Translations under genes and position numbers: made by a program
Source: an uncultured cyanobacterium
GTDB lineage: Bacteria; Cyanobacteriota; Cyanobacteriia; Cyanobacteriales; Nostocaceae
DNA: 64,000 nucleotides
Assembly: GCA_963706595.1 (NCBI GenBank)
Contig: OY970166.1
Coordinates: 2,144,001 to 2,208,000, forward strand
Reading direction: 5' to 3'
The notes under the pieces: model-generated
Database searches by the model: none
What the model saw: only the letters and a program-made list of their open reading frames with translations
Told to the model about the DNA's origin: nothing
Part shown: one piece after another, positions 43,247-62,903 of the stretch
Numbering within the stretch: position 1 is the stretch's first letter
Layout of the letters: each line of letters begins with the position of its first letter

Positions 43247-44119
43247 TTAAAAAAATATCTTCTGAAAAGGTGAAGCCATTCGACTTAAAGTATGAATAGG
43301 ATGAATTTTCATTGCTTCTTTAATACTTTTTAAAGCAATTAAACGTTGTCCTAATTTATAAGAAATAATTGCATGATCATACAAGAAATTAGCAAACATT
43401 TTCGGATGAGCTTCAAACAGTAATCGGTGCTTAGTCAATAAACGATTAAAATTCAGTTGTCGTTTATTAGCATCAAGAGAAACTCTGGGTTCTTGATGGT
43501 CAAATAGTTGATAAGTAACAATCGGTAATCCTTGAATTGAACACACTTGATTAAGCCTTAAAAAGAGTTCTGTATGGATACGAGAAGTAAAATTTTCATC
43601 AAACCCTCCAATATCCAAAAGGACTTTTTTTTCAACCACCATCGTCTGTTTACAAAAGAATGATTGATCGGGTTCAATTTCTTCGAGACTAAAATGAGAG
43701 CCTTTGGGTAAACTAGGGGGGATGCGAGTTTGCCTAACTTTTCCGTCTTTTCCTATCACTTCTAAAGCTGAAAGAAGAGCAACCGGTTCAGGTAAGCTAG
43801 TTTGATTAAGGGTATCTAAAGAAACCTGAGCCATGTGGGGGAGTAAACAGTCGTCATCATCCAAATAAGTAATCCACTGTCCTCTAGCTTCTCTTGCTCC
43901 GATATTGCGTGCAGCCGAACCTCCTCGGTTTTCTAGCAAGCGAATCACCCTAAGCCGTTCATTTTCTCCTAAATTCACTGGACTTGAAGAAGCGTCATCA
44001 ACTACAATGACTTCAAGTTGCTTGAAGGTTTGTCCCAATGCACTATTGACAGCACGAGGCAGGAGATGAGGACGATTATAAGTGGGAATAATAATACTTA
44101 ATAGCGGATTTGTCATCAT
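43247..44119 (-). CDS. GT2 glycosyltransferase
   Basis: SIIIPTYNR, VVDDAS, YLDDDD. Confidence 0.9.
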   Translation of the reverse strand: MMTNPLLSIIIPTYNRPHLLPRAVNSALGQTFKQLEVIVVDDASSSPVNLGENERLRVIRLLENRGGSAARNIGAREARGQWITYLDDDDCLLPHMAQVSLDTLNQTSLPEPVALLSALEVIGKDGKVRQTRIPPSLPKGSHFSLEEIEPDQSFFCKQTMVVEKKVLLDIGGFDENFTSRIHTELFLRLNQVCSIQGLPIVTYQLFDHQEPRVSLDANKRQLNFNRLLTKHRLLFEAHPKMFANFLYDHAIISYKLGQRLIALKSIKEAMKIHPIHTLSRMASPFQKIFF

Positions 44120-45321
44120 TAAAATCTTATTGGAGAAAGATAATTACTTCGGATTTCTTGATAAATCTCTAAAAAATGTTCAGTCCGACGATCCTCACTA
44201 AAGTAATTAATTGCTCGTTTTCTACCTGCGTGACCCATTTTTTCAGCTAAATCTCGGTCTTTTAAGATAGATAAAACTGCCGTTGATAAAGCCTCCTCAT
44301 CATTGGAGGGAACTAACAACCCTGTTACCCCATCTTCAATAATCTCAGGTTGCGCCCCGACTGCACTAGCAACAACTGCCGTTCCTCGCATCATGGCTTC
44401 TGTTGTCACATTGCCAAAGGGTTCATCCCAAATCGAAGGAACAACCTGCACCCAAGCACAATTAAAAGCTGTTTCTAGATCAGATCGAGTTAAATAGCCT
44501 AACCAAGTCACATTGTCACTAATTCCTAATTCTTGAGTTAGTTGATGTAAGTTAGCTTTTTCTTTACCTTCACCAGCAATTAGTAACCTAGCATTTGGTA
44601 GAATTGAAATTACTTTTTTAAAGGCTTGTAAAAGAATATCAACTCCCTTTTCTGAGGATAATCTTCCAGCAAAGGCAACTGTGGGAGGATTAGTCAGTGG
44701 TGGTCGAATTTCTCTGTATGGCACGCCATTATAAACTACTTGAACAGGAGAAATGCCTTCTGTTTCAAGTCTGGTTTTCATTCGATGACTTAACGCCACC
44801 ACTGTATCAAACGCATTACGCCAACGTAACCATAATTGACGCTGTATCATTAAAAATAGCCAAGACTGAGGCGTAACACAACCCATGTTTAAACAAGCTT
44901 TCCCTGCCTGATGATAACAAGGACTGCCATCGGGTAACATCTTCGTTCCGACGGGGCAAATTGGTCGGTAAAGGGCGGTTTGATAGACACTGGGAAAGGG
45001 TTTAAGTAAAGGTAGAATTAAGGGGGACAATTGGGTGAAAAACAAGCGAACATGAACAACATCCGGTTTAAATTCCCGTAAAACTTTTTTCAGCTTAAAA
45101 TAACTCGACAGGTTAGCGGTTTCCACTACCACCTCTAAGCGAGAATTCGTGCCAAAACAATGATAATCAGCCAATAAGGGACTATTTTCAACCGGGATGC
45201 AGTTACTTGTGAACAAGCGTACCTCATGCCCTTTCTCTCTTAACCCTTCTCTGAGGGATAACATTTGTAATTCTGCTCCACCTGTGGCTGTCCCATAGTC
45301 ATGAATTAAAAGAATTTTCAT
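44119..45321 (-). CDS. GT4 glycosyltransferase
   Basis: GGAE, FAGRLSSEKG, PSIWDEPFGNVTTEAM. Confidence 0.92.
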   Translation of the reverse strand: MKILLIHDYGTATGGAELQMLSLREGLREKGHEVRLFTSNCIPVENSPLLADYHCFGTNSRLEVVVETANLSSYFKLKKVLREFKPDVVHVRLFFTQLSPLILPLLKPFPSVYQTALYRPICPVGTKMLPDGSPCYHQAGKACLNMGCVTPQSWLFLMIQRQLWLRWRNAFDTVVALSHRMKTRLETEGISPVQVVYNGVPYREIRPPLTNPPTVAFAGRLSSEKGVDILLQAFKKVISILPNARLLIAGEGKEKANLHQLTQELGISDNVTWLGYLTRSDLETAFNCAWVQVVPSIWDEPFGNVTTEAMMRGTAVVASAVGAQPEIIEDGVTGLLVPSNDEEALSTAVLSILKDRDLAEKMGHAGRKRAINYFSEDRRTEHFLEIYQEIRSNYLSPIRF

Positions 45322-45324
45322 AGA

Positions 45325-46398
45325 TTAACTATGGGTGGTTACAGAAACAGATACGTTTTCACAGGGATGATCGTTGTCAGAATTGGTATTATTTAACCAC
45401 TGACGAGCATATTGGTCAGTTAGATAGTGATTCATAAGTTTTTCTATGGGAGCAAATAACCCATACATTAGCAATTTGTGTAAAAGTCGATGCTTAATTC
45501 CCAATGTTAGAGAATTAATAATTGGTTGTAAAAGAGTTTTTCTCCGTCGCCATCCTAAGCCTTTATATTTCTGCAAAAAATACATATCTTCTGCAATGTT
45601 CCATTTTTGTCGTAAACGGTTTAAACTTGCTAATTCCCAAGCATCACTCCATCGCAACATATAAAATTTCAAATCTGACAAATTTGGGGTAATTCCTGTT
45701 ACATAGGTGACAATACTTTCTGGTTCAAAATAGACAGTTCCACCATGTTTTCTAACTGTCATACAAAAATCAACGTGTTCTTTTGTATTAAGCATTTTTT
45801 CGTCTAAATATCCCACGTTCTCAAAAATTTCAGTTTTTGCTAACATACAGTGAAATTCACATAATTCTGTTTCTTTACGGGTGAGGGTGGGAAGCATTTT
45901 TTCCACCTTGTGTCCTTGTTTGTACATTTTCTCCCGTAAACGCTTTCTTCCTTTGATATCGGTGAAAATATGGGCTTCTCCCCCGGCAAAATGAATTTGT
46001 TCGTGGACGGGTTCATGCTGACACATTAAAGGTCCGACAATAGTTGCCTCTGTTGCTTCTGCACAGTCGAGTAATTTAGTTAACCATCCCTGAGACACAA
46101 TCACATCATTATCGACAAAGACTACATAGGGAGTAGTCACCCGTTTTAAACCCATGTTCCTTGCTACATTAGGAACAAGATAATGTTCAGTCCGAATTAA
46201 ATCAAATCCTTTTTCCTGGGCTTGACTTTTTAAATAATCTTTAATAGAAGTCGGTGAGCCACCATCAACATAAACTAATTTGAAGGGAATATCGGTATTT
46301 TGATAGATATTCTCTAGGGAAGAGATGGTAAAACTAAAACGTTCTCTAGGAACAACAACCAGAGTGACTTTTGGTTCGATTGGGGTGAATAGCTGCAT
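45325..46398 (-). CDS. GT2-like glycosyltransferase
   Basis: VYVDGGS, ARNMGL, VFVDNDV, EHVDFC. Confidence 0.8.
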   Translation of the reverse strand: MQLFTPIEPKVTLVVVPRERFSFTISSLENIYQNTDIPFKLVYVDGGSPTSIKDYLKSQAQEKGFDLIRTEHYLVPNVARNMGLKRVTTPYVVFVDNDVIVSQGWLTKLLDCAEATEATIVGPLMCQHEPVHEQIHFAGGEAHIFTDIKGRKRLREKMYKQGHKVEKMLPTLTRKETELCEFHCMLAKTEIFENVGYLDEKMLNTKEHVDFCMTVRKHGGTVYFEPESIVTYVTGITPNLSDLKFYMLRWSDAWELASLNRLRQKWNIAEDMYFLQKYKGLGWRRRKTLLQPIINSLTLGIKHRLLHKLLMYGLFAPIEKLMNHYLTDQYARQWLNNTNSDNDHPCENVSVSVTTHS

Positions 46399-46464
46399 AT
46401 TTTTTACAGACCTAATAACATCGAATTAAATTTGATTCATGAGTATTTGCACAAATCAGAAGAA

Positions 46465-47940
46465 TTAGCTCACTATTACAGGCTCTTTTTTGCCTTTAGT
46501 CATAAATTCCTCATGATAGGATCGCTCAGTATTGACTGTCCAGAGGTTATGATTTGCGCCCATGATATTCTCAGCCGCTAATAATGCAGACAACATGGAA
46601 TGGTCTTGATTGTTATAACGGTGCATCCCATTACGTCCTACTGATTGTAAGTTCTCAAAACTATCTACATAGTCTTGAATGACGTTTAAATGTTGCTGAT
46701 ATTCACCATCGTAGACAGGATAAGCTTTCTTTTCCCGAATGACAGTCCCATCTTCAATTTTCTTAATATCATCTAGTAAGCCTAAATTGACAATTTCTTT
46801 ACTGGCTAATCTAATTAAATCTTGATCTTCCATTGACCATAAATCATCCCCCTCACTACAAAAATATTCCATTCCTAAGCAAGTTTTACGGGGATCTGGA
46901 ACCATTTTCATACTCCAATTTTTAAAATTCTGAATGCGTCCAACTTTAATTTCTGGACTGTGAATATAAATCCAATTGTCTGGAAAAAGGTCTTCTTGAT
47001 TAATCACTATCGGCACAATCAGAAAATCCCGATATTTCAGACTACGGGCAGCTTTCAGAACATTTTCTGGAGGTAAGGGATCTAGACGGTGCATCAATGC
47101 CGTGATCGGCATGGTATTAATGAATTTATCTCCTGTAATTTCAAAGGTTTCATCACCTTTTTTGGCAATAATCCGAGTAATGCGTTTGTCTTTTCGTTCT
47201 ACTCTGATTACTTCCGTATTTAATAATACGGGTGAACCTTGTTCATTCAATTTTTCTTGAAACCGTTCCCACATCATCCCCGGTCCCAATATGGGATAGT
47301 CAAATTCTTTAATCAGAGTTTTGGTGTCATTACTGCCAAATAAAGCGTTAATTATTGCTTTTGTGAGAGATAATCCTTTAATTCTTTGTGCTGCCCAATC
47401 TGCGCGAATTTGAGTACAGGGAATTCCCCAAACTTTTTCGGTATAGCTTTTGAAAAAGGTTTTATATAATCGTTCTCCAAACCTGTTTATCACCCATTGT
47501 TCAAAATTTTCTTCGATGGGTAAAGGACTGGCTTTGACTTTTAAATAACTATAAATAATCAGCAAAGTTTGGATAATTCCCAAGTTCCACACTGCATTAA
47601 CTGGTTCTAAGGGATAACTAAAAAATTTTCCTTTATAGTAAATGCGAGATAAACGGGGAACTTTAATAAATTCATCTCCTAACACCTCATTCCACAAATT
47701 TTGGACTTGGGTAACTTTGGTAAAAAAGCGATGTCCTCCAATATCAAAGCGATAGCCTTTGTAGGTTTCAGTCCGAGAAATTCCCCCCACGCGATCGCCT
47801 TTTTCCAACACTACAGAATGTAAGCCATGTTTAGCTAATTGATAAGCCGCAGTTAATCCCGCAGGTCCGCCACCAATGACAACACTCAAGGGAAAGTTGT
47901 GGTGGTTATGCTCATGATTACTATTCTTATTTTGTTTCAT
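46465..47940 (-). CDS. FAD-dependent oxidoreductase (UDP-galactopyranose mutase/HemY-like fold)
   Basis: IGGGPAGLTAA, FDIGGHRFF, GRNGMHRYNNQDHSM. Confidence 0.82.
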   Translation of the reverse strand: MKQNKNSNHEHNHHNFPLSVVIGGGPAGLTAAYQLAKHGLHSVVLEKGDRVGGISRTETYKGYRFDIGGHRFFTKVTQVQNLWNEVLGDEFIKVPRLSRIYYKGKFFSYPLEPVNAVWNLGIIQTLLIIYSYLKVKASPLPIEENFEQWVINRFGERLYKTFFKSYTEKVWGIPCTQIRADWAAQRIKGLSLTKAIINALFGSNDTKTLIKEFDYPILGPGMMWERFQEKLNEQGSPVLLNTEVIRVERKDKRITRIIAKKGDETFEITGDKFINTMPITALMHRLDPLPPENVLKAARSLKYRDFLIVPIVINQEDLFPDNWIYIHSPEIKVGRIQNFKNWSMKMVPDPRKTCLGMEYFCSEGDDLWSMEDQDLIRLASKEIVNLGLLDDIKKIEDGTVIREKKAYPVYDGEYQQHLNVIQDYVDSFENLQSVGRNGMHRYNNQDHSMLSALLAAENIMGANHNLWTVNTERSYHEEFMTKGKKEPVIVS

Positions 47941-48288
47941 TATTTGATTTTTTTAATTTTCTGGAATTAATAACTCAAAGGCTAATACTCCTGACTGTTC
48001 AATGTATTCTGTTGATTAGATTGCCAGCCCTGAGTAAGCATGAAAAAGTTATCTTCTCACCATCTAAAAGTTGTTTAGTACAACTTGTCAGGTGGAAAAT
48101 TTGCGAAGCATAAATAATTGCTACATCTGCTCCTTAATAGTTCCGGTAACAAGGTTTAGCAGTGAGATTGTTAAGTGGTTTTATTTGTTGTTGGTTATTG
48201 ACTTAAATTTTACCTGTTTGATTTGTCAGTATGCATTAATATACCATAAAGTTTGGTAACTAAAATATACAGCAAAGATAAATGTTTG

Positions 48289-49266
48289 TCAAAACTTCCC
48301 AAGAATTATACTGATGATAAAAGCCGAGCCACTGTAGAAATAGTAACACCAGTGCCAAGGTATAACCTGGACACTAAATATCATGCCTCGCTTGTTGAGA
48401 AAAAAGCGGTACACTGGCAAGTTAATAATTATCAGTAATAAACTAATTATCATGCTGAAAATCAGTAGCGGCTGTAGCCAGAAACTCGCCAATATACTTA
48501 GTAATAAAGAATAAACTAGAATTACACTGACGCGACTAGACCAGCCAAGGTTTAAATCAGAAGGCATTTGTCCTTGACGCAGTATTAATTGAGTCCAGGG
48601 TAATGCGCGATCGCACACATCTGCTTTAATTAAAGAAACTATTCCCCATCGTTTCAAATGTTTAACTTGCAAAGCTTTAACTAGGCGAATTTTGTAACCT
48701 GCTGCTTTAAGTCGATAACCTAACTCAATGTCTTCCACACAAGGACGACGATAATTTTTATCAAAACCGTCCATAGTCAAGAAGATATCACGACGAATTG
48801 CGCCGCAAGCACCCCAAAACGTGAAAGCATCTTCATTGCCATTTTGATGGGTATAATGATGAAAAAGATTTTTGTATTGAGACAGAAAATTGCTTGCTCC
48901 TGGAGCATCATCATAAGAACCAATCAATGCTGCTAGACTTGCATCTTCTGTAAACGCCAATCTTACCTGATTGATGGTATCTGGAGCGATCGCCACATCA
49001 GCGTCCACAAAAAAAAGGATATCTCCTTCAGCCGCAGCTGCACCTAAATTCCTGGCTTGTGCAGGTCCGCCTTTCTCCTCCACATTAATTACCTTAGCTC
49101 CCCAGTCGGCTGCTACTTGCCCAGATTCCGTATCCCCATCCGCTACCACAATCACTTCTGTGGGCTGGGAAATAGACGCGCCCATGCTTGACAAACACTG
49201 GCGGAAACTTTCACCACCATTATGAACCGGAATGATCACCGAAATTGATAGCTGTGTTGGGTTCAT
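48289..49266 (-). CDS. GT2 glycosyltransferase with C-terminal TM segments
   Basis: [31 protein letters not shown]. Confidence 0.9.
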
Positions 49267-49289
49267 TTCTACTTTTACTAGCCTCAGTA

Positions 49290-49502
49290 GTCCCTCGTCA
49301 TTTTACGCCTTTGACGAAGTAGATATGTTTTTAGATGGGGCAAACGTCGAGGGATTAGCTAGAATGATTAAATCAAGAAGCCCAACAAGCGCAATTTATA
49401 GTTGTGAGTTTGCGTCGTCCGATGATAGAATCAGCCGAACGCAGCATTGGCGTTACTCAAGTTTTGGGAATTAAATTAAAATCATCCCATACATCTGCTT
49501 GA
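49290..49502 (+). pseudogene. Duplicated smc 3' fragment (right direct repeat)
   Basis: Encodes [17 protein letters not shown]; has a 1-nt insertion and a 21-nt deletion relative to the left copy; ends ...KLKSSHTSA*. Confidence 0.9.
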
Positions 49503-56940: not shown

Positions 56941-56984
56941 TTCCTGTAGAGGTAATTCATGAATTACCTCTATAGCAAAATTTG

Positions 56985-57216: not shown

Positions 57217-57666
57217 ATGGAGAACAGCCAAGTGTTTAGAGTCAATAGTCCTCAAGTTGTCTGTGAAACTATTGATGGAGAAGTGGTAGTTGTCGATCTT
57301 GAGCGGGGTTACTATTACAGTCTGCTAAAAACTGGCGCAGATTTGTGGAGTTGTATCGAGCGTCATCTTCAGCGCGATGACATAATCCAAGAAATTGGAC
57401 AAAAGTATGATGGGACTATCGCAGAGATTACTGAGGCGATTGATGAGTTTCTTGACAAATTGCAACATGAGGGATTAATTGTGGCTGATGCCACTATTAC
57501 ACCTGGGGCTATTAATGAGCAAGAATCAGTTACCAGTAGCGAAAAGCCCAAATTTGAGAAACCGATACTAGAGAAGTTTACAGATATGGAAGATTTGCTG
57601 CTGCTCGATCCGATTCATGAGGTGGATGTAGAAGCTGGATGGCCAAATGTGAAGACGGTTTCATAG
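57217..57666 (+). CDS. PqqD/RRE family protein with C-terminal peptide extension
   Basis: VVCETIDGEVVVVDLERGYYYSLLKTGADLW...FLDKLQHEGLI is a PqqD pattern; tail FEKPILEKFTDMEDLLLLDPIHEVDVEAGWPNVKTVS. Confidence 0.85.
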   Translation: MENSQVFRVNSPQVVCETIDGEVVVVDLERGYYYSLLKTGADLWSCIERHLQRDDIIQEIGQKYDGTIAEITEAIDEFLDKLQHEGLIVADATITPGAINEQESVTSSEKPKFEKPILEKFTDMEDLLLLDPIHEVDVEAGWPNVKTVS

Positions 57667-57690
57667 TGAATACAATATTGTGATTTTACT

Positions 57691-58737
57691 ATGAGTTTAA
57701 ACTGGAGCGATGGCGTAGCCGCCCGCCAAGGGCTTCGCCTGGCTTACTTTGATAGTTATCGATTAAAATTGTCCCACAAACAATTACTCAAAGCCACACT
57801 GTTAAAAGAGCAGGCAATGTTAACGGCTTGGCAAGATTGGCGAGATTCAGTTGATATAGAAACTTTAGATGCTAGTTCCTATTCATTGTTGCCACAACTT
57901 TACCAAAACTTATTAGCTCATAAAGTTGATGACGCTGATATGGCAAGGCTAAAGGGGATCTATCGTCGCCATTGGTATGCTAATCAATTGCAACTCAAAT
58001 CGCTGACAGCAATATTGTCTAGTTTAAAGGATATTGGCATTGAGGCGATTGTGCTGGGAGATGCCGCTTGGGGTGGGATAGGTAAAAATCAAATTGAGAA
58101 TTACCGCCCAATTTATAGCTTCCATCTCTTGCTTGATGGCAATTATTTAGAGACAGCAATCGAGCATTTGCTCTCGCTAAATTGGCATAGTGTTGATGGT
58201 AGTACCCAACAATTTAGGGAATTACGCCACAATTGTGATTCATCGCTGAATTTACGGCTTTATTTGCAAGGACATCTGTTTTGGGCAATTCCCCAAGACT
58301 ATACAGATGGGCAGGTGTGGCATTATGCAACTGCGGATTGGAGCCATGAAGCTGGTTGGCGGCTGAGTGCAACGGATCAGTTCCTGGATGGATGCGCGCG
58401 AATGTTTTTTAGACGACTAACGCCTAAATCATCGAATCCACAGATACACAGGATTGCAGATGCTTTGGTGTTAATTGCGAATCTCCCAAACAACGATTGG
58501 ATCAGGTTGATCACACAAGCACAGCGATATCAAATGATCTTGCCTGTGCGGAATATGTTGCAGCTTTTGCAGCAGTTATTTTCAGTAGAATTACCAACGT
58601 GGGTATTACCGGCTCTCTGGCAAATGCCGATCGCCAATACGGAGTGGCTAAAATATCGAGTTTTAGATGGCGATCGCCGTTCTCTGATGCGTTCAACCAT
58701 TGTGCAATCGCTACAACTGTTGACTCTTTCAAAGTAA
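57691..58737 (+). CDS. Nucleotidyltransferase-like protein (NTP_transf_5-type, degenerate)
   Basis: LLPQLYQNL, RLKGIYRRHWYANQ, GIEAIVLG; the canonical DxD is not visible. Confidence 0.6.
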   Translation: MSLNWSDGVAARQGLRLAYFDSYRLKLSHKQLLKATLLKEQAMLTAWQDWRDSVDIETLDASSYSLLPQLYQNLLAHKVDDADMARLKGIYRRHWYANQLQLKSLTAILSSLKDIGIEAIVLGDAAWGGIGKNQIENYRPIYSFHLLLDGNYLETAIEHLLSLNWHSVDGSTQQFRELRHNCDSSLNLRLYLQGHLFWAIPQDYTDGQVWHYATADWSHEAGWRLSATDQFLDGCARMFFRRLTPKSSNPQIHRIADALVLIANLPNNDWIRLITQAQRYQMILPVRNMLQLLQQLFSVELPTWVLPALWQMPIANTEWLKYRVLDGDRRSLMRSTIVQSLQLLTLSK

Positions 58738-58758
58738 TTGTTTCTTAACTAGATTCCA

Positions 58759-59865
58759 GTGATTTTTATGTATCCTAACCCTGATCTGAGTATTGCTCAG
58801 AGCGATCGCCTTGCTTATTTCCAACTGGTATATACAGGCTTTGAAAGAGCTGCTCAGATTGCCAGTGAGGTACAGTATTATTATGCAATTGGTAAGTATA
58901 AGATATGTCTGAGGTTTGCAGGGGAAGGGTTAATTCCCCAGATTACCCCTGCATTGTCTCATCTCTCTATAGCCCCAGTTCCCCAGCCTGATCTAACTAT
59001 TTGCCTATGGGATAATACCTCAACTAAAACACAATTGCCATTATTAATTGATAGTCTATTAACTCTGATTCGACTGCATTGGACAGATTATCTCGGTCCA
59101 CGCAAAGAGATCAAAGCCTATGATGGCGATCGCATTCGCAGCAATTTTCATATTGGTCCCAACATTCTCAGCGTACTAGATCGAGAGCAAAATTTAGCTT
59201 GTTATTGGATTGACAATGCTGAAGATATTCCTTATTGGGAAAAAGGTTCACCCCTGCAAACCATCTTAAATTGGTGGACAAGCGATCATCGCCAACATCA
59301 ATATGTTCACGCAGGTGCGATCGGTAATCCTGATGGGGGTGTTTTGTTAGCGGGAAAAGGCGGATCTGGCAAATCTTCCACTGCGCTTACCTGTATCAAT
59401 AGTTCGCTGCTCTATGCCAGTGATGATTATTGTTTAGTCACCAGTGATCCTCAACCCTATGTTTATAGCCTCTACAACACCGCCAAATTAAAAGGACAAG
59501 CGGATCTAGAACGATTTCCCCATTTAGCGGATCTCGTTGATAATTGCGATCGCTTAGAGAATGAAAAAGCAATGCTATTTTTGCATCAACATCATCCTCA
59601 AAAAGTCGTACAAGGATTTCCCATCAAAGCGGTGCTAGTGCCTCAAATCACAGGGAAACTAGATACCCATATCCGTCCTATGAGTGCAGGAGCAGCCTTG
59701 CGCGCCCTAGCCCCTAGTACCATCTTTCAATTAGCTGGTAGTGGACAAACAGCATTACAAATCATGTCAAGTTTGGTCAAACAGGTTCCTTGCTATGTTT
59801 TGGAACTTGGCACAGATATGGTACAAATTCCCGATGTAATTCAACGTCTGCTATCGCAAATATAA
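58759..59865 (+). CDS. HPr kinase-like P-loop kinase
   Basis: VHAGAI, GVLLAGKGGSGKSS Walker A, SDDY. Confidence 0.82.
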   Translation: MIFMYPNPDLSIAQSDRLAYFQLVYTGFERAAQIASEVQYYYAIGKYKICLRFAGEGLIPQITPALSHLSIAPVPQPDLTICLWDNTSTKTQLPLLIDSLLTLIRLHWTDYLGPRKEIKAYDGDRIRSNFHIGPNILSVLDREQNLACYWIDNAEDIPYWEKGSPLQTILNWWTSDHRQHQYVHAGAIGNPDGGVLLAGKGGSGKSSTALTCINSSLLYASDDYCLVTSDPQPYVYSLYNTAKLKGQADLERFPHLADLVDNCDRLENEKAMLFLHQHHPQKVVQGFPIKAVLVPQITGKLDTHIRPMSAGAALRALAPSTIFQLAGSGQTALQIMSSLVKQVPCYVLELGTDMVQIPDVIQRLLSQI

Positions 59866-59896
59866 ATCTGGGAAACTTAAAACAGGAGTCGATCAC

Positions 59897-60314
59897 ATGG
59901 GATATCTCCGGCGAAAAATGATTGAGGGATTAACTCGATTTGTGCCGACAATTCTTCCTCCCCAAAGGCAATACTATAACGAAACCAATAATGATCGATG
60001 GATTTGTGAATATGTCTTTCCCAATAAACGGGATGGTTATTTCTTAGAAGTTGGAGCAGGTGCTGCTCAAAAAATATCATGCTCCTCAAGTGATTGATTA
60101 TGCTGCTTTTGATATTGAGGGCAGTGAGTTGGATGTTTTAGAAGTTTTTCCCTTTGAGCCTTATGTCTTTCTAGCTCTGAGTTTGGAATGTGATGGTTCT
60201 ATCCGTTTACCCATTTCTCAGTTATTAGAATCCAATGGCTATCGACGCGCTAAAAATCCATTTAATCGGGATAAACCTTGGGAAATGTATTGGTTACATC
60301 AGAGTGTTTACTAG
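59897..60314 (+). pseudogene. FkbM-family methyltransferase with internal deletion and frameshift
   Basis: N part ...DGYFLEVGA and C part ...VIDYAAFDIEGSE...LESNGY overlap at TTGGAGCAGG (60051-60060); the middle is missing. Confidence 0.75.
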
Positions 60315-60392
60315 TTTGGTTACTCTTAAACATCTGTGAGCAGATTTTTGGTATCATCTTGAGGTTTTTATCCTAACAGTTTTTGGGCATTA

Positions 60393-61085
60393 ATGAATAA
60401 CTTACCTTTAGTAACTGTGATTATCCCTGTCTATAATTACGCTAATTATATAGCCGCAACACTTGACAGTGTATTTGCTCAAACCTATCGCCCAATTGAA
60501 GTCATTGTTGTGGATGATGGTTCAACAGATAACAGTGCGGAAATTGTGCGTGGTTATCCAGAAGTACAGTATTTTTATCAATCAAATCAAGGTGTGTCAG
60601 TTGCTCGCAATGTGGCGATCGCTGCTGCTAAAGGTGAATTTATCGCATTTTTGGATGCAGATGATCTCTGGAAACCTGAGAAACTCAGTCTTCAAATTGC
60701 CTATATGCAGGAAAATCCTGATATTGGGATCACAGGTACAAAATCGATAAATTTTTTAGAATCAGATACTCAACTTCCCCCTTGGCTAAGAGATAAGCCC
60801 CATTGGGAAGAGGTGAGAGAGATCCTTCCCAGCACAATCGTGGTTCACAAATCTGTTTTTAGTCAAATCGGGGTATTCTCTCCTGATTATCGTGCCAGCG
60901 AGGATACAGAATGGCAATGGCGAGCCAAAGATGCAAATATATCCATCTTTAATATCAATGAAATCCTGACATTAAGACGATTTCAGGGTTCTAATCTATC
61001 GTGGGAGATGAAAGTAACTCAGAAATCTCGGATGTTGAGAATTATCAAGGAATCCATCGCTCGTAAATCGACCCAAGCTCGATGA
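60393..61085 (+). CDS. GT2 glycosyltransferase (tandem copy 1)
   Basis: VIIPVYN, VVDDGSTD, FLDADD, SEDTEW. Confidence 0.92.
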   Translation: MNNLPLVTVIIPVYNYANYIAATLDSVFAQTYRPIEVIVVDDGSTDNSAEIVRGYPEVQYFYQSNQGVSVARNVAIAAAKGEFIAFLDADDLWKPEKLSLQIAYMQENPDIGITGTKSINFLESDTQLPPWLRDKPHWEEVREILPSTIVVHKSVFSQIGVFSPDYRASEDTEWQWRAKDANISIFNINEILTLRRFQGSNLSWEMKVTQKSRMLRIIKESIARKSTQAR

Positions 61086-61179
61086 GCTAATCTATTTTAT
61101 TCATTCATAGAATTAAACACCTTTCAACAGATTTTCGGCATTATCTTCAGGTTCGTATCCTAATAGTTTTTGGGTATTA

Positions 61180-61872
61180 ATGAATAATTTACCTTTAGTG
61201 ACCGTTGTTATCCCTGTTTATAACTCTGCTAAGTTTTTGGCAGCAGCACTTGACAGTGTATTTGCTCAAACCTATCGCCCAATCGAAGTCATTGTTGTGG
61301 ATGATGGTTCAACAGATAACAGTGCGGAAATTGTGCGTGATTATCCAAAAGTACAGTATTTTTATCAATCAAATCAAGGTGTGTCAGTTGCTCGCAATGT
61401 GGCGATCGCTGCTGCAAAGGGTGAATTTATCGCATTTTTGGATGCAGATGATCTTTGGAAACCTGAGAAACTCAGTCTTCAGATTGCCTATATGCTGGAA
61501 AATCCTGATATTGGGATCACAGGTACAAAGGCGATAAATTTCTTAGAGTCAGATACTCAACTTCCCCCTTGGCTGAGAGATGATCCCAATTGGGAAGAGG
61601 AAAAAGTGATGATTCCTAGCACAATGGTGGTTCACAAATCTGTTTTTAGTCAAGTTGGAGATTTTTCTCCTGATTATCGTGCCAGCCAGGATACAGAATG
61701 GTTATGGCGAGCCAAAGATGCAAAGATCCCCATGTTTAATATCAATGAAATTCTGACATTAAGACGATTTCACGGCTCTAATGTATCATGGCTGATGGCA
61801 GGAACTCACAAATCTCGGATGTTGAGAATTATCAAGGACTCCATCGCTCGTCAATCGCAGCAATCTCGATGA
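61180..61872 (+). CDS. GT2 glycosyltransferase (tandem copy 2)
   Basis: Same 230-aa length and largely identical to copy 1; 787-bp period. Confidence 0.92.
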   Translation: MNNLPLVTVVIPVYNSAKFLAAALDSVFAQTYRPIEVIVVDDGSTDNSAEIVRDYPKVQYFYQSNQGVSVARNVAIAAAKGEFIAFLDADDLWKPEKLSLQIAYMLENPDIGITGTKAINFLESDTQLPPWLRDDPNWEEEKVMIPSTMVVHKSVFSQVGDFSPDYRASQDTEWLWRAKDAKIPMFNINEILTLRRFHGSNVSWLMAGTHKSRMLRIIKDSIARQSQQSR

Positions 61873-61899: not shown

Positions 61900-62207
61900 T
61901 TAAACATCTATGAGCAGATTTTCGGCATTATCTTCAGGTTCGTATCCTAACAGTTTTTGGGCATTGCTGATATCCCAATAGCGGCGCGTGTTGCCAGAAA
62001 CTCCATAAAAAATTTGAAAACCAAGATTGTCATGCTCTAGCGATCGCCTAACTATTTGTGCTAAATCTCTAGGGCTACACCAATTTGATAATATCCGATC
62101 ATTGGGAGCATAAACTTTCGGTTCGGTTTTAAACCAGCCAATCCGCAAACAGATCACCGTCATCCCATAGCGATCGCCAAAATATTGTCCTAAAGCTTCA
62201 CCTAAAA
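61900..62207 (-). pseudogene. C-terminal remnant of an NAD-dependent epimerase/uronate dehydrogenase-like protein
   Basis: LGEALGQYFGDRYGMTVICLRIG...SPRDL...YGVSGN...LGYEPED; no Rossmann N-terminus. Confidence 0.75.
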
Positions 62208-62903
62208 TTATTGGTTTAAAGCTCTGTGTTTTGCACGTTCTCGATCTAGCTTGGCTTTGATGATGTGCAGTCTTTGATTGGCATATTGACGTTCTGTAAT
62301 TCCACTATTGCTTTCATGTAGTCGGCGGTGATATACCACATCTGGAATTGTAATTTGTTGCAGTTGATGTTCTATTGCCCAAATATACCAACTTATATCA
62401 ATACCTGTGTTGAGATTGGTGTCAAAGTTGCCCACTCTCAAAAAAGCCGATCGCTTGATCAACATAGCACTAGATATATGCGCCGCAACTGGTTTTTCTG
62501 GACAGCGAATCCTGTTTCTGAAGTTTTCATCTAGTTCTGGGCTATAAAAATTTTGAGCATAGCCAAAGACTGCTTCTATATCTGGGTTAGTATCAAAAGC
62601 CGCCATTTGTTTTGCTAGTTTGTCCTGAACCCAAATATCATCAGAATCGAGAAAGGCGAGAAATTCACCATTAGCTACTGCAATTCCGGCATTTCTAGCA
62701 GCACTGATGCCGCCATTGGTTTGATAGTGATATTTCAGGGGGTAGCTTTGGGCAATTTCGCCACTGCGATCGCTCGATCCATCGTCAATTACAATCAACT
62801 CGATATTGGGATGGGTTTGCTCTAAAACACTTTCAATAGCTTCGGCTAAATAGCGCTCTCGATTATAGCAGGGAATAATAACACTAACTAAAGGTAAATT
62901 CAT
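62208..62903 (-). CDS. GT2 glycosyltransferase
   Basis: SVIIPCYN, VIDDGSSD, FLDSDD. Confidence 0.92.
   Translation of the reverse strand: MNLPLVSVIIPCYNRERYLAEAIESVLEQTHPNIELIVIDDGSSDRSGEIAQSYPLKYHYQTNGGISAARNAGIAVANGEFLAFLDSDDIWVQDKLAKQMAAFDTNPDIEAVFGYAQNFYSPELDENFRNRIRCPEKPVAAHISSAMLIKRSAFLRVGNFDTNLNTGIDISWYIWAIEHQLQQITIPDVVYHRRLHESNSGITERQYANQRLHIIKAKLDRERAKHRALNQ

Follow-up and report, generated by a model that had tools for sequence, protein, structure and literature searches.

A conserved bacterial cassette couples a self-leadered RRE protein to an HPrK-like kinase and short glycosyltransferases: a possible protein carrier for glycan building

The cassette described here lies near the end of a 64,000-nucleotide stretch of DNA, herein called the window, from an uncultured cyanobacterium of the Nostocaceae (GenBank GCA_963706595.1, contig OY970166.1; G000:C1:2144001-2208000). 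The genome consists of one contig of 5.57 Mb and is 94% complete by markers. Six co-oriented open reading frames (ORFs), separated by gaps of 24, 27, 31, 78, and 94 bp, encode a protein composed of a recognition element for peptides made by the ribosome and modified after translation (RiPP recognition element, RRE) and a C-terminal tail, a nucleotidyltransferase (NTase)-like protein, an HPrK-like kinase, a broken FkbM-family methyltransferase, and two short glycosyltransferases of family 2 (GT2s). A convergent arm with an epimerase remnant, a third GT2, a tetratricopeptide repeat (TPR) protein, and an intact NTP_transf_5 faces them (Table 1). The ORF listing and profile scans of the window proteins bear out the ORFs, the tight spacing, and the family calls of the initial annotation. 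The convergent GT2 operon that it described is present in the orientation given, but its genes are part of the same locus. Neither a lasso cyclase nor a B2 peptidase was found on ORF inspection of the locus and the next 40 kb, in line with the initial annotation, which saw neither in the window.

Table 1. Features of the cassette and its convergent arm; positions are those of the window.
Feature	Position	Strand	Remarks
RRE-tail protein, 149 aa	57217-57666	+	PF05402 (PqqD) E 1.4e-14, 54.5 bits
RRE domain, residues 1-91	57217-57489	+	AlphaFold2 pLDDT 80-88 at residues 11-90; residues 12-35 form the predicted kinase-docking sheet face
Self-leader F113-x-x-P116-x-L118...T122, lasso positions -17/-14/-12	57553-57582	+	F113 in 131/139, P116 in 138/139 relatives
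Near-invariant motif, candidate acceptor/carrier site	57583-57645	+	D131, P132, H134, and G141 in 139/139, W142 in 138/139 relatives
NTP_transf_5-like protein	57691-58737	+	PF14907 E 3.2e-8, 33.9 bits (cut-off 31.2)
HPrK-like kinase	58765-59865	+	PF07475 E 7.7e-4, TIGR04352 E 3.8e-8, both under cut-off
FkbM-family methyltransferase pseudogene	59897-60314, two pieces	+	~300 bp deleted near 60058, frameshift
Short GT2, 230 aa	60393-61085	+	PF00535 E 8.8e-38; DxD intact (FLDADD)
Short GT2, 230 aa	61180-61872	+	Tandem duplicate of the preceding gene; proteins 85% identical
NAD-dependent epimerase, 3' remnant	61900-62205	-	~470 bp of the 5' part deleted; intact gene (251 aa) in G003
Short GT2, convergent arm	62208-62903	-	PF00535 E 6.8e-37; same cluster as the + strand GT2s
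TPR protein, 489 aa, C-terminal part weakly glycosyltransferase-like	62903-64372, crosses window end	-	Family in 12/80 loci
Intact NTP_transf_5	64296-65513, just beyond window end	-	Intact catalytic motif

The initial annotation saw no separate precursor in the window. The view that no precursor is visible is not supported: a lasso-type leader and a core-positioned motif, together a precursor-like part, are fused to the C-terminal end of the RRE protein. The RRE domain is followed by a variable linker of ~20 residues, the self-leader, and the motif D123-M-x-x-L-L-L-L-D131-P-I-H134-E-V-D-x(2-3)-G141-W-P143. The lasso numbering, with Tyr at -17, Pro at -14, and Leu at -12, would place the start of the core at L130 (PMC10368454). 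Conservation was determined in 139 single-domain relatives, taken from the 150 top-ranked cluster representatives (clustering at 50%) by leaving aside 11 long proteins; the relatives were ranked by a profile including the tail, which biases the set toward conserved tails. Herein, the mean frequency of the top residue is 0.51 in the RRE, 0.19 in the linker, 0.60 in the leader, and 0.86 in the motif. The motif contains no conserved Ser, Thr, or Tyr. Position -2 is Leu in 131 of these relatives, and the Thr(-2) of lasso precursors is not there. T122 was considered as an acceptor and rejected: its position holds T or S in 117 relatives and D, E, or G in the others, so that it is not invariant, and its substitution pattern is that of a helix N-cap. 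When the motif codons are set against those of 13 close orthologues, the residue changes in 11 of 273 pairs and 81 pairs differ silently, with silent changes occurring at the same rate as elsewhere. On account of this normal rate, the tail was dismissed as a DNA or RNA element; judged from its codons, the motif is constrained at the protein level.

In the AlphaFold2 model of the lone protein, the RRE and a strand at residues 118-121 (pLDDT 83) are confident, the linker between them is disordered, and the end is of low confidence. The models suggest that the self-leader likely sits in the groove of its own RRE, whose fold resembles that of TbiB1 from leader complexes (TM 0.88-0.91 by target length). 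By sequence and fold, TbiB1, PbaB1-type, and TfuB1 are the nearest RREs; the lasso RRE model NF033536 matches with 50.8 bits, under its cut-off of 80. Proteins with tandem RREs carry a leader-like stretch after each repeat, while the DPxH...GWP motif is present once. Hence, the leader appears to belong to the RRE unit, and the motif to be a single functional site. One further tandem-RRE protein, P0222, ends in DPPLPI where the others have DPIH...GWP and possibly belongs to a sister family. Stand-alone tail peptides were also considered; the three short hits among three candidates all resemble cut or mis-started RRE-tails. The genome contains no second tail-like sequence.

The kinase is HPrK-like only at a distance but retains H182, the P-loop residues G197, G200, G202, K203, and S204, and the pair D220 and D221 (48 aligned members), and the same residue set is reported as important in BsfK (PMC10368454). 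In the kinase tree, it clusters with Nostocaceae sequences. Among 301 cyanobacterial genomes, the RRE-tail and the kinase both occur in the same 14, and among 41 near relatives, the RRE-tail occurs in seven and the kinase in eight, the odd genome being 93% complete and in 620 contigs; such counts are affected by kinship between the genomes and by the joint movement of linked genes, but in one genome (G211), the two lie on separate contigs. Six natural RRE-tail-kinase fusions exist: P0133, P0140, P0195 (three RREs plus the kinase), P0279, P0272, and P0273. The form with three RREs was found in three distinct clusters. Four of the fusions fall into one clade of the kinase tree and two lie elsewhere on long branches. 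The tree was built by a quick method and has long branches for P0272, P0273, and P0279; as far as it can be read, fusions sit in at least two, perhaps three, of its places, and part of them could be read-through artefacts. A kinase-GT2 fusion occurs in six loci, all of one clade. Taken from these sequence patterns, the RRE-tail and the kinase look like a tight, obligate pair.

A complex of the two was modelled from the kinase, ATP, Mg, and the RRE-tail, alongside three controls. It scored 0.81 and the best control 0.00. The pass mark was attained by 116 of 157 solved complexes, against two of 215 mismatched pairs, and these rates apply only roughly to the alignments and ligands used here. Contact agreement between runs was at least 62% and the partner pLDDT at least 78. 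In the model, RRE residues 12-35, including the conserved E17, E22, G31, Y33, and S35, contact kinase residues 307-339, and tail residues 121-128 contact kinase residues including R113 and K198. No solved relative of the window kinase was found beyond the HPrK P-loop, which makes it less likely that the predictor merely reproduced a known structure. The RRE-tail is thus predicted, on the basis of this model, to dock on the neighboring HPrK-like kinase.

The in-window NTase had been counted among the tailoring enzymes. An active enzyme is not supported, as K-G and the catalytic D-x-D are lost, with G-D replacing the former and S-F-H the latter. The PsmN variant D134A/D136A is inactive (PMC6993621), and the window protein is likely catalytically dead, as far as its sequence tells. 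Among 57 relatives, 20 are intact, and a second NTase type occurs in none of their loci. Each of the 19 relatives found in one locus with this second type is degenerate; a further 18 degenerate ones have none in the stretch compared. The pattern is thus complementary, a DxD in this NTase type being kept only where the second type is absent from the locus. The dead form is a conserved pseudo-enzyme and is perhaps retained as a scaffold.

A scan of GTDB confirmed at least 432 of 599 stretches, and the best 80 loci, many of them incomplete at their ends, were compared. The family comprises 968 clusters at 50% identity (E up to 1e-30). The 80 loci are spread over Cyanobacteriota, Nitrospirota, Chloroflexota, Thermodesulfobacteriota, Acidobacteriota, and more phyla. 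They contain the kinase in 70, a short GT2 in 63, an NTP_transf_5-like protein in 59, the commonest ABC (ATP-binding cassette) exporter family in 23, FkbM in four, and a B2 peptidase in one case, the latter on the opposite strand within a separate gene group. When the 46 loci of at least 17 kb are taken, the counts are 44 for the kinase, 42 for the short GT2, 40 for the NTP_transf_5-like protein, and 12 for the ABC exporter, and two to four GT2s occur in 40. These counts exceed chance, and the neighborhood comparison supports both the conserved co-occurrence across genomes and the view that a cyclase- and peptidase-free set of lasso-type tailoring genes is tied to glycosyltransferases. Variable neighbors are GT4s, a short-chain dehydrogenase/reductase with a gluconolactonase, epimerases, TPR glycosyltransferases, and methyl- and sulfotransferases; a WcaJ-type initiating transferase motif occurs in one of the 80 loci. 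A scan of the loci for the PP-loop motif of a cyclase returned a single, unrelated enzyme of 365 aa. No conserved small ORF that could be a separate precursor is present in the 80 loci, in which pattern searches for such precursors gave 10 scattered, unrelated hits that were dismissed. GT87, a membrane GT-C, was likewise dropped as a regular member, since it occurs in none of the 80 loci and was found only in a paralogous locus at 3.66 Mb and in P0274. The latter joins GT87 to a complete RRE-tail; it is a single record and a possible read-through.

The layout of leader and core in lasso register raises the possibility of a true RiPP, in which a protease, housekeeping or unlinked, would release the modified tail for export in the form of a small glyco-phosphopeptide. 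This would be a fused form of the linear polyphosphorylated peptide (LPP) system of Bacillota (LppA/K/B/S/D/N; PMC13381572), whose core set of RRE, kinase, NTase, and MsbA-like exporter recurs here, and a motif within 20 residues of the C terminus in 141 of 148 relatives would suit it. We consider it improbable. The annotated families among the 22 commonest neighbors include no peptidase, and B2 is limited to the lone locus mentioned above; no SpI-like peptidase was seen in the locus or in these 22 families, for which no dedicated SpI profile search was made. Position -2 lacks the Thr, LPP cores are highly variable and this motif is invariant, and in the six kinase fusions the motif is internal, so that it need not be C-terminal.

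The likeness to LPP is nevertheless extensive. Both systems combine an RRE with an HprK-like kinase and an NTP transferase, and often with an MsbA-like exporter, without a cyclase and among glycosyltransferase genes, and the leader motif [YFW]xxPx[LV] of LPP corresponds to FxxPxL here (PMC13381572). However, the RRE of LPP is discrete, the LPP precursors are separate and vary in their cores, SpI serves as the peptidase, and Ser3 is the acceptor. In the cassette, by contrast, the RRE itself bears leader and motif, neither Ser nor Thr occurs in the invariant motif, and no peptidase is conserved. The LPP precursor motif YxxPxVLxHQxIxFETxxS with its Ser3 is not matched; an Asp, not a Ser, stands at the equivalent offset. 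LPP is a system of Bacillota and the cassette one of Cyanobacteriota, Nitrospirota, Chloroflexota, Thermodesulfobacteriota, Acidobacteriota, and others. The cassette shares with LPP the set of RRE, kinase, and NTP transferase without a cyclase, but with no SpI seen and no separate Ser3 precursor, it is not an LPP cluster. It resembles the phospho-lasso systems, namely paeninodin, pseudomycoidin (PsmK/PsmN; PMC6993621), and Bsf (BsfK/BsfB1; PMC10368454), in the TbiB1-like fold of the RRE, the kinase residues H-G-G-G-K-S-D-D, and an NTP_transf_5 with DxD, as well as in the RRE-assisted phosphorylation near the core start that is described for Bsf. It differs from them by lacking a cyclase, B2, Thr(-2), a Ser acceptor, and a separate precursor, and by having several GT2s as core members. 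Despite its lasso-type RRE, it is not a lasso cluster, as neither cyclase nor B2 lies within it. The HPr-rel-A/GAK cassettes (TIGR04352, TIGR04353, and TIGR04355) also place an HprK-related kinase beside a PqqD-family protein. The best members of the present family reach E 1.2e-12 with the kinase A model and 1.1e-4 with the PqqD model; the window kinase scores 32.8 bits against a cut-off of 200, and the window RRE has no TIGR04353 hit, so that the cassette falls outside these models.

A cyclase, B2 peptidase, or precursor elsewhere in the genome would have allowed the cassette to act as a detached tailoring module in trans, on the precursor of a B2 cluster or on lasso peptides. Such a cluster exists at G000:C1:3282180-3289938 (L102) and comprises an RRE, a GT4, a 40-aa precursor, an HPrK-like kinase, a GT2, B2, ABC halves, and an intact NTP_transf_5. 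The precursor, with a YxxPxL leader and Thr(-2), is the sole lasso-type precursor found in the genome. Hence, a B2 peptidase and a canonical precursor are indeed present, and a B2 match occurs in 24 of 50 cassette-bearing genomes. They come, however, in a cluster that supplies an RRE, a kinase, and an intact NTase of its own; this kinase is unrelated to that of the window, and tblastn found no match between the two at E 1e-4. A lasso cyclase is without a match in the genome (NF033535, no matches; PF00733 matched only a QueC-like gene). In the remaining 26 of the 50 genomes, which are of unstated completeness, no B2 match was found, G012, G014, and G030 show no second RRE match, and the RRE groove is likely filled in cis. 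Trans tailoring is accordingly very unlikely. The 3.28 Mb cluster, which contains no cyclase, is of separate interest. The predicted 13-residue core of its precursor is rich in Gly, Ser, and Thr and has no Asp or Glu, so that a lasso ring cannot form. By its gene content, the cluster is a candidate for a cyanobacterial linear phospho-glycopeptide system with B2 in place of the LPP SpI peptidase.

The paralogous locus, G000:C1:3657860-3668428 (L103, in the region 3.655-3.668 Mb), encodes a 54% identical kinase and both NTase types, dead and live, together with Wzm/Wzt-like ABC genes, a sulfotransferase, a GT2, a GT4, and GT87, and has no RRE. A locus of the same kind, L081, includes an RRE-tail. 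The 3.66 Mb locus may borrow the RRE-tail of the window.

The copy in the window has decayed in part. The intact locus of a congeneric genome, G003, carries the RRE-tail, dead NTase, kinase, FkbM, and two GT2 genes on one strand and the epimerase, a third GT2, the TPR protein, the intact NTase, and an ABC exporter of 592 aa on the other. Compared with it, deletions in the window genome have removed ~300 bp from FkbM, ~470 bp from the epimerase, and 1.75 kb from the ABC exporter. A lone frameshift was rejected as the cause of the FkbM break, since tblastn leaves a gap at residues ~61-160 of the intact 241-aa G003 gene, in line with the ~300-bp deletion. The duplication of the + strand GT2s (an 853-bp repeat, 89% identity) is common to G003. 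These three deletions could mean that this copy, as distinct from the family, is a dying relic without present function; the search for RNA runs also gave no good one, the two found having shares of 0.05-0.06. We hold this to be rather unlikely, because several genes are still whole (the RRE-tail, the kinase, the intact NTase, the three GT2s, and the TPR protein share 86-98% identity with their G003 counterparts), and because the second kinase locus of the genome has no RRE-tail of its own. The product of this copy would be shortened, or the copy would depend on the paralogous 3.66 Mb locus.

What the RRE-tail does within the family can be narrowed down from these observations. The reading we tentatively prefer, short of calling it probable, is that a phosphate-linked glycan is started on it, the protein being reused or retained as a carrier or primer. 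This reading was the second idea of the initial annotation and is now the best supported. The motif is more conserved than the RRE and lies where the core would begin; the Bsf and LPP kinases phosphorylate Ser3 of the core with the help of the RRE (PMC10368454 and PMC13381572), and this Ser3 maps onto P132 or D131 of the tail. The pairing and fusions of RRE-tail and kinase, the modelled complex, and the single WcaJ-type motif among the 80 loci likewise count in favor of a carrier. The motif is invariant, mobile, single-copy, may be internal, and has no linked protease, and a carrier or primer site reads best for such a segment; its presence once per tandem-RRE protein and its internal place in the kinase fusions suit a carrier better than a released peptide. 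No other substrate candidate is at hand either, given that neither a conserved small ORF in the 80 loci nor a second tail in the genome was found. Carrier and primer proteins with an invariant site, such as the acyl carrier protein and glycogenin, and enzyme-precursor fusions, such as the borosins, are known. The cassette resembles these in having an invariant motif on a mobile segment that is fused to a loading enzyme, a likeness of logic alone and not of homology.

The steps of a carrier mechanism could run as follows. The self-leader would fill the RRE groove, as two models suggest, and the RRE sheet is predicted to lie on the C-terminal helices of the kinase, bringing helix 123-128 near kinase R113 and the P-loop residue K198. 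The kinase would then phosphorylate the motif on Asp131 or His134, or else phosphorylate a sugar that a GT2 had placed on the motif beforehand. By analogy with the requirement for PsmN, the intact opposite-strand NTP_transf_5 may add a hexose to the phosphate, after which two to four short GT2s and variable GT4s, methyltransferases, and sulfotransferases may extend and cap the chain. The product would be exported by the ABC transporter where one is present. In its most specific form, the self-leadered RRE protein would replace both the RiPP precursor and the lipid carrier, with the kinase phosphorylating the invariant Asp or His and the chain being built thereon before hand-off or export. This full version is doubtful; if true, it would mean that bacteria have a new, protein-primed way of making glycans and that HPrK-family kinases perform a chemistry new to them.

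Several observations weigh against a carrier. Residues 129-143 have a pLDDT below 50 in the lone protein and lie outside the confident contacts of the complex. In the AlphaFold2 model of the natural fusion P0273, the leader reaches a pLDDT of 88-90, the motif stays below 50, and no docking pose is obtained, with only six rows of the alignment spanning the motif stretch. The interface columns of the kinase show no excess of conservation (0.63 versus an average of 0.62). An export signal is not evident in the RRE-tail protein, and only 23 of the 80 loci contain the commonest ABC exporter family. Moreover, the kinases of this type characterized in PMC13381572, PMC10368454, and PMC6993621 modify Ser or Thr, of which the motif has none.

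Because the motif lacks a hydroxyl, a second reading stays close. The RRE-tail could be a permanent accessory subunit whose tethered leader keeps the kinase switched on. The motif would then act as a pseudo-substrate or as the place where the NTase or the GT2s dock, and the acceptor would be another molecule, such as a sugar, a glycan linked to a lipid, or a protein without a leader. We regard this as a serious possibility that falls below the carrier in likelihood. An Asp at the position of the LPP phospho-Ser could mimic the product, and the RRE-kinase fusions are one-to-one. Engineered fusions of leader and enzyme act on leaderless substrates. The gene set resembles that of surface-glycan loci, with Wzm/Wzt, a sulfotransferase, and GT87 in the paralogous locus. 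In the known systems, BsfK is stimulated by the RRE (PMC10368454), and LppB is insoluble without the leader (PMC13381572). On the other side, the models do not show the motif docked on the kinase, and no other substrate gene is conserved in the loci.

Some features near the cassette stand apart from it. A 38-bp, terminator-like inverted repeat (window 56941-56978) directly follows an O-methyltransferase gene and parts that gene from the cassette. A second small glycosylation operon on the - strand, ~8 kb upstream (window 43247-49266), comprises a GT2, a GT4, a GT2, a flavin oxidoreductase, and a GT2, and was not observed as a conserved neighbor of the cassette. A short ORF at window 49232-49474 (+) presumably resembles the C-terminal piece of an SMC protein.

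The literature search, which mostly did not extend to subscription journals, returned no account of the cassette family, the LPP and lasso papers being the nearest. Of PF05402 proteins, 21% exceed the length of a discrete RRE without having another domain (PMC12710340), and the part of that text examined has no description of the present tail. The cassette is thus a real, conserved, and uncharacterized variant of the RRE-kinase-NTase tailoring sets, with a real chance of new chemistry, in a large family that spans many phyla. It bears on the role of NTP_transf_5 enzymes and on why sets of RRE, HprK, and NTP transferase occur in polysaccharide loci, a question left open by the LPP authors (PMC13381572). 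Chaperone and candidate substrate are herein one chain. Either outcome would be new, whether glycans are built on a protein carrier or the machinery of RiPPs has become a leader-independent glycan kinase.

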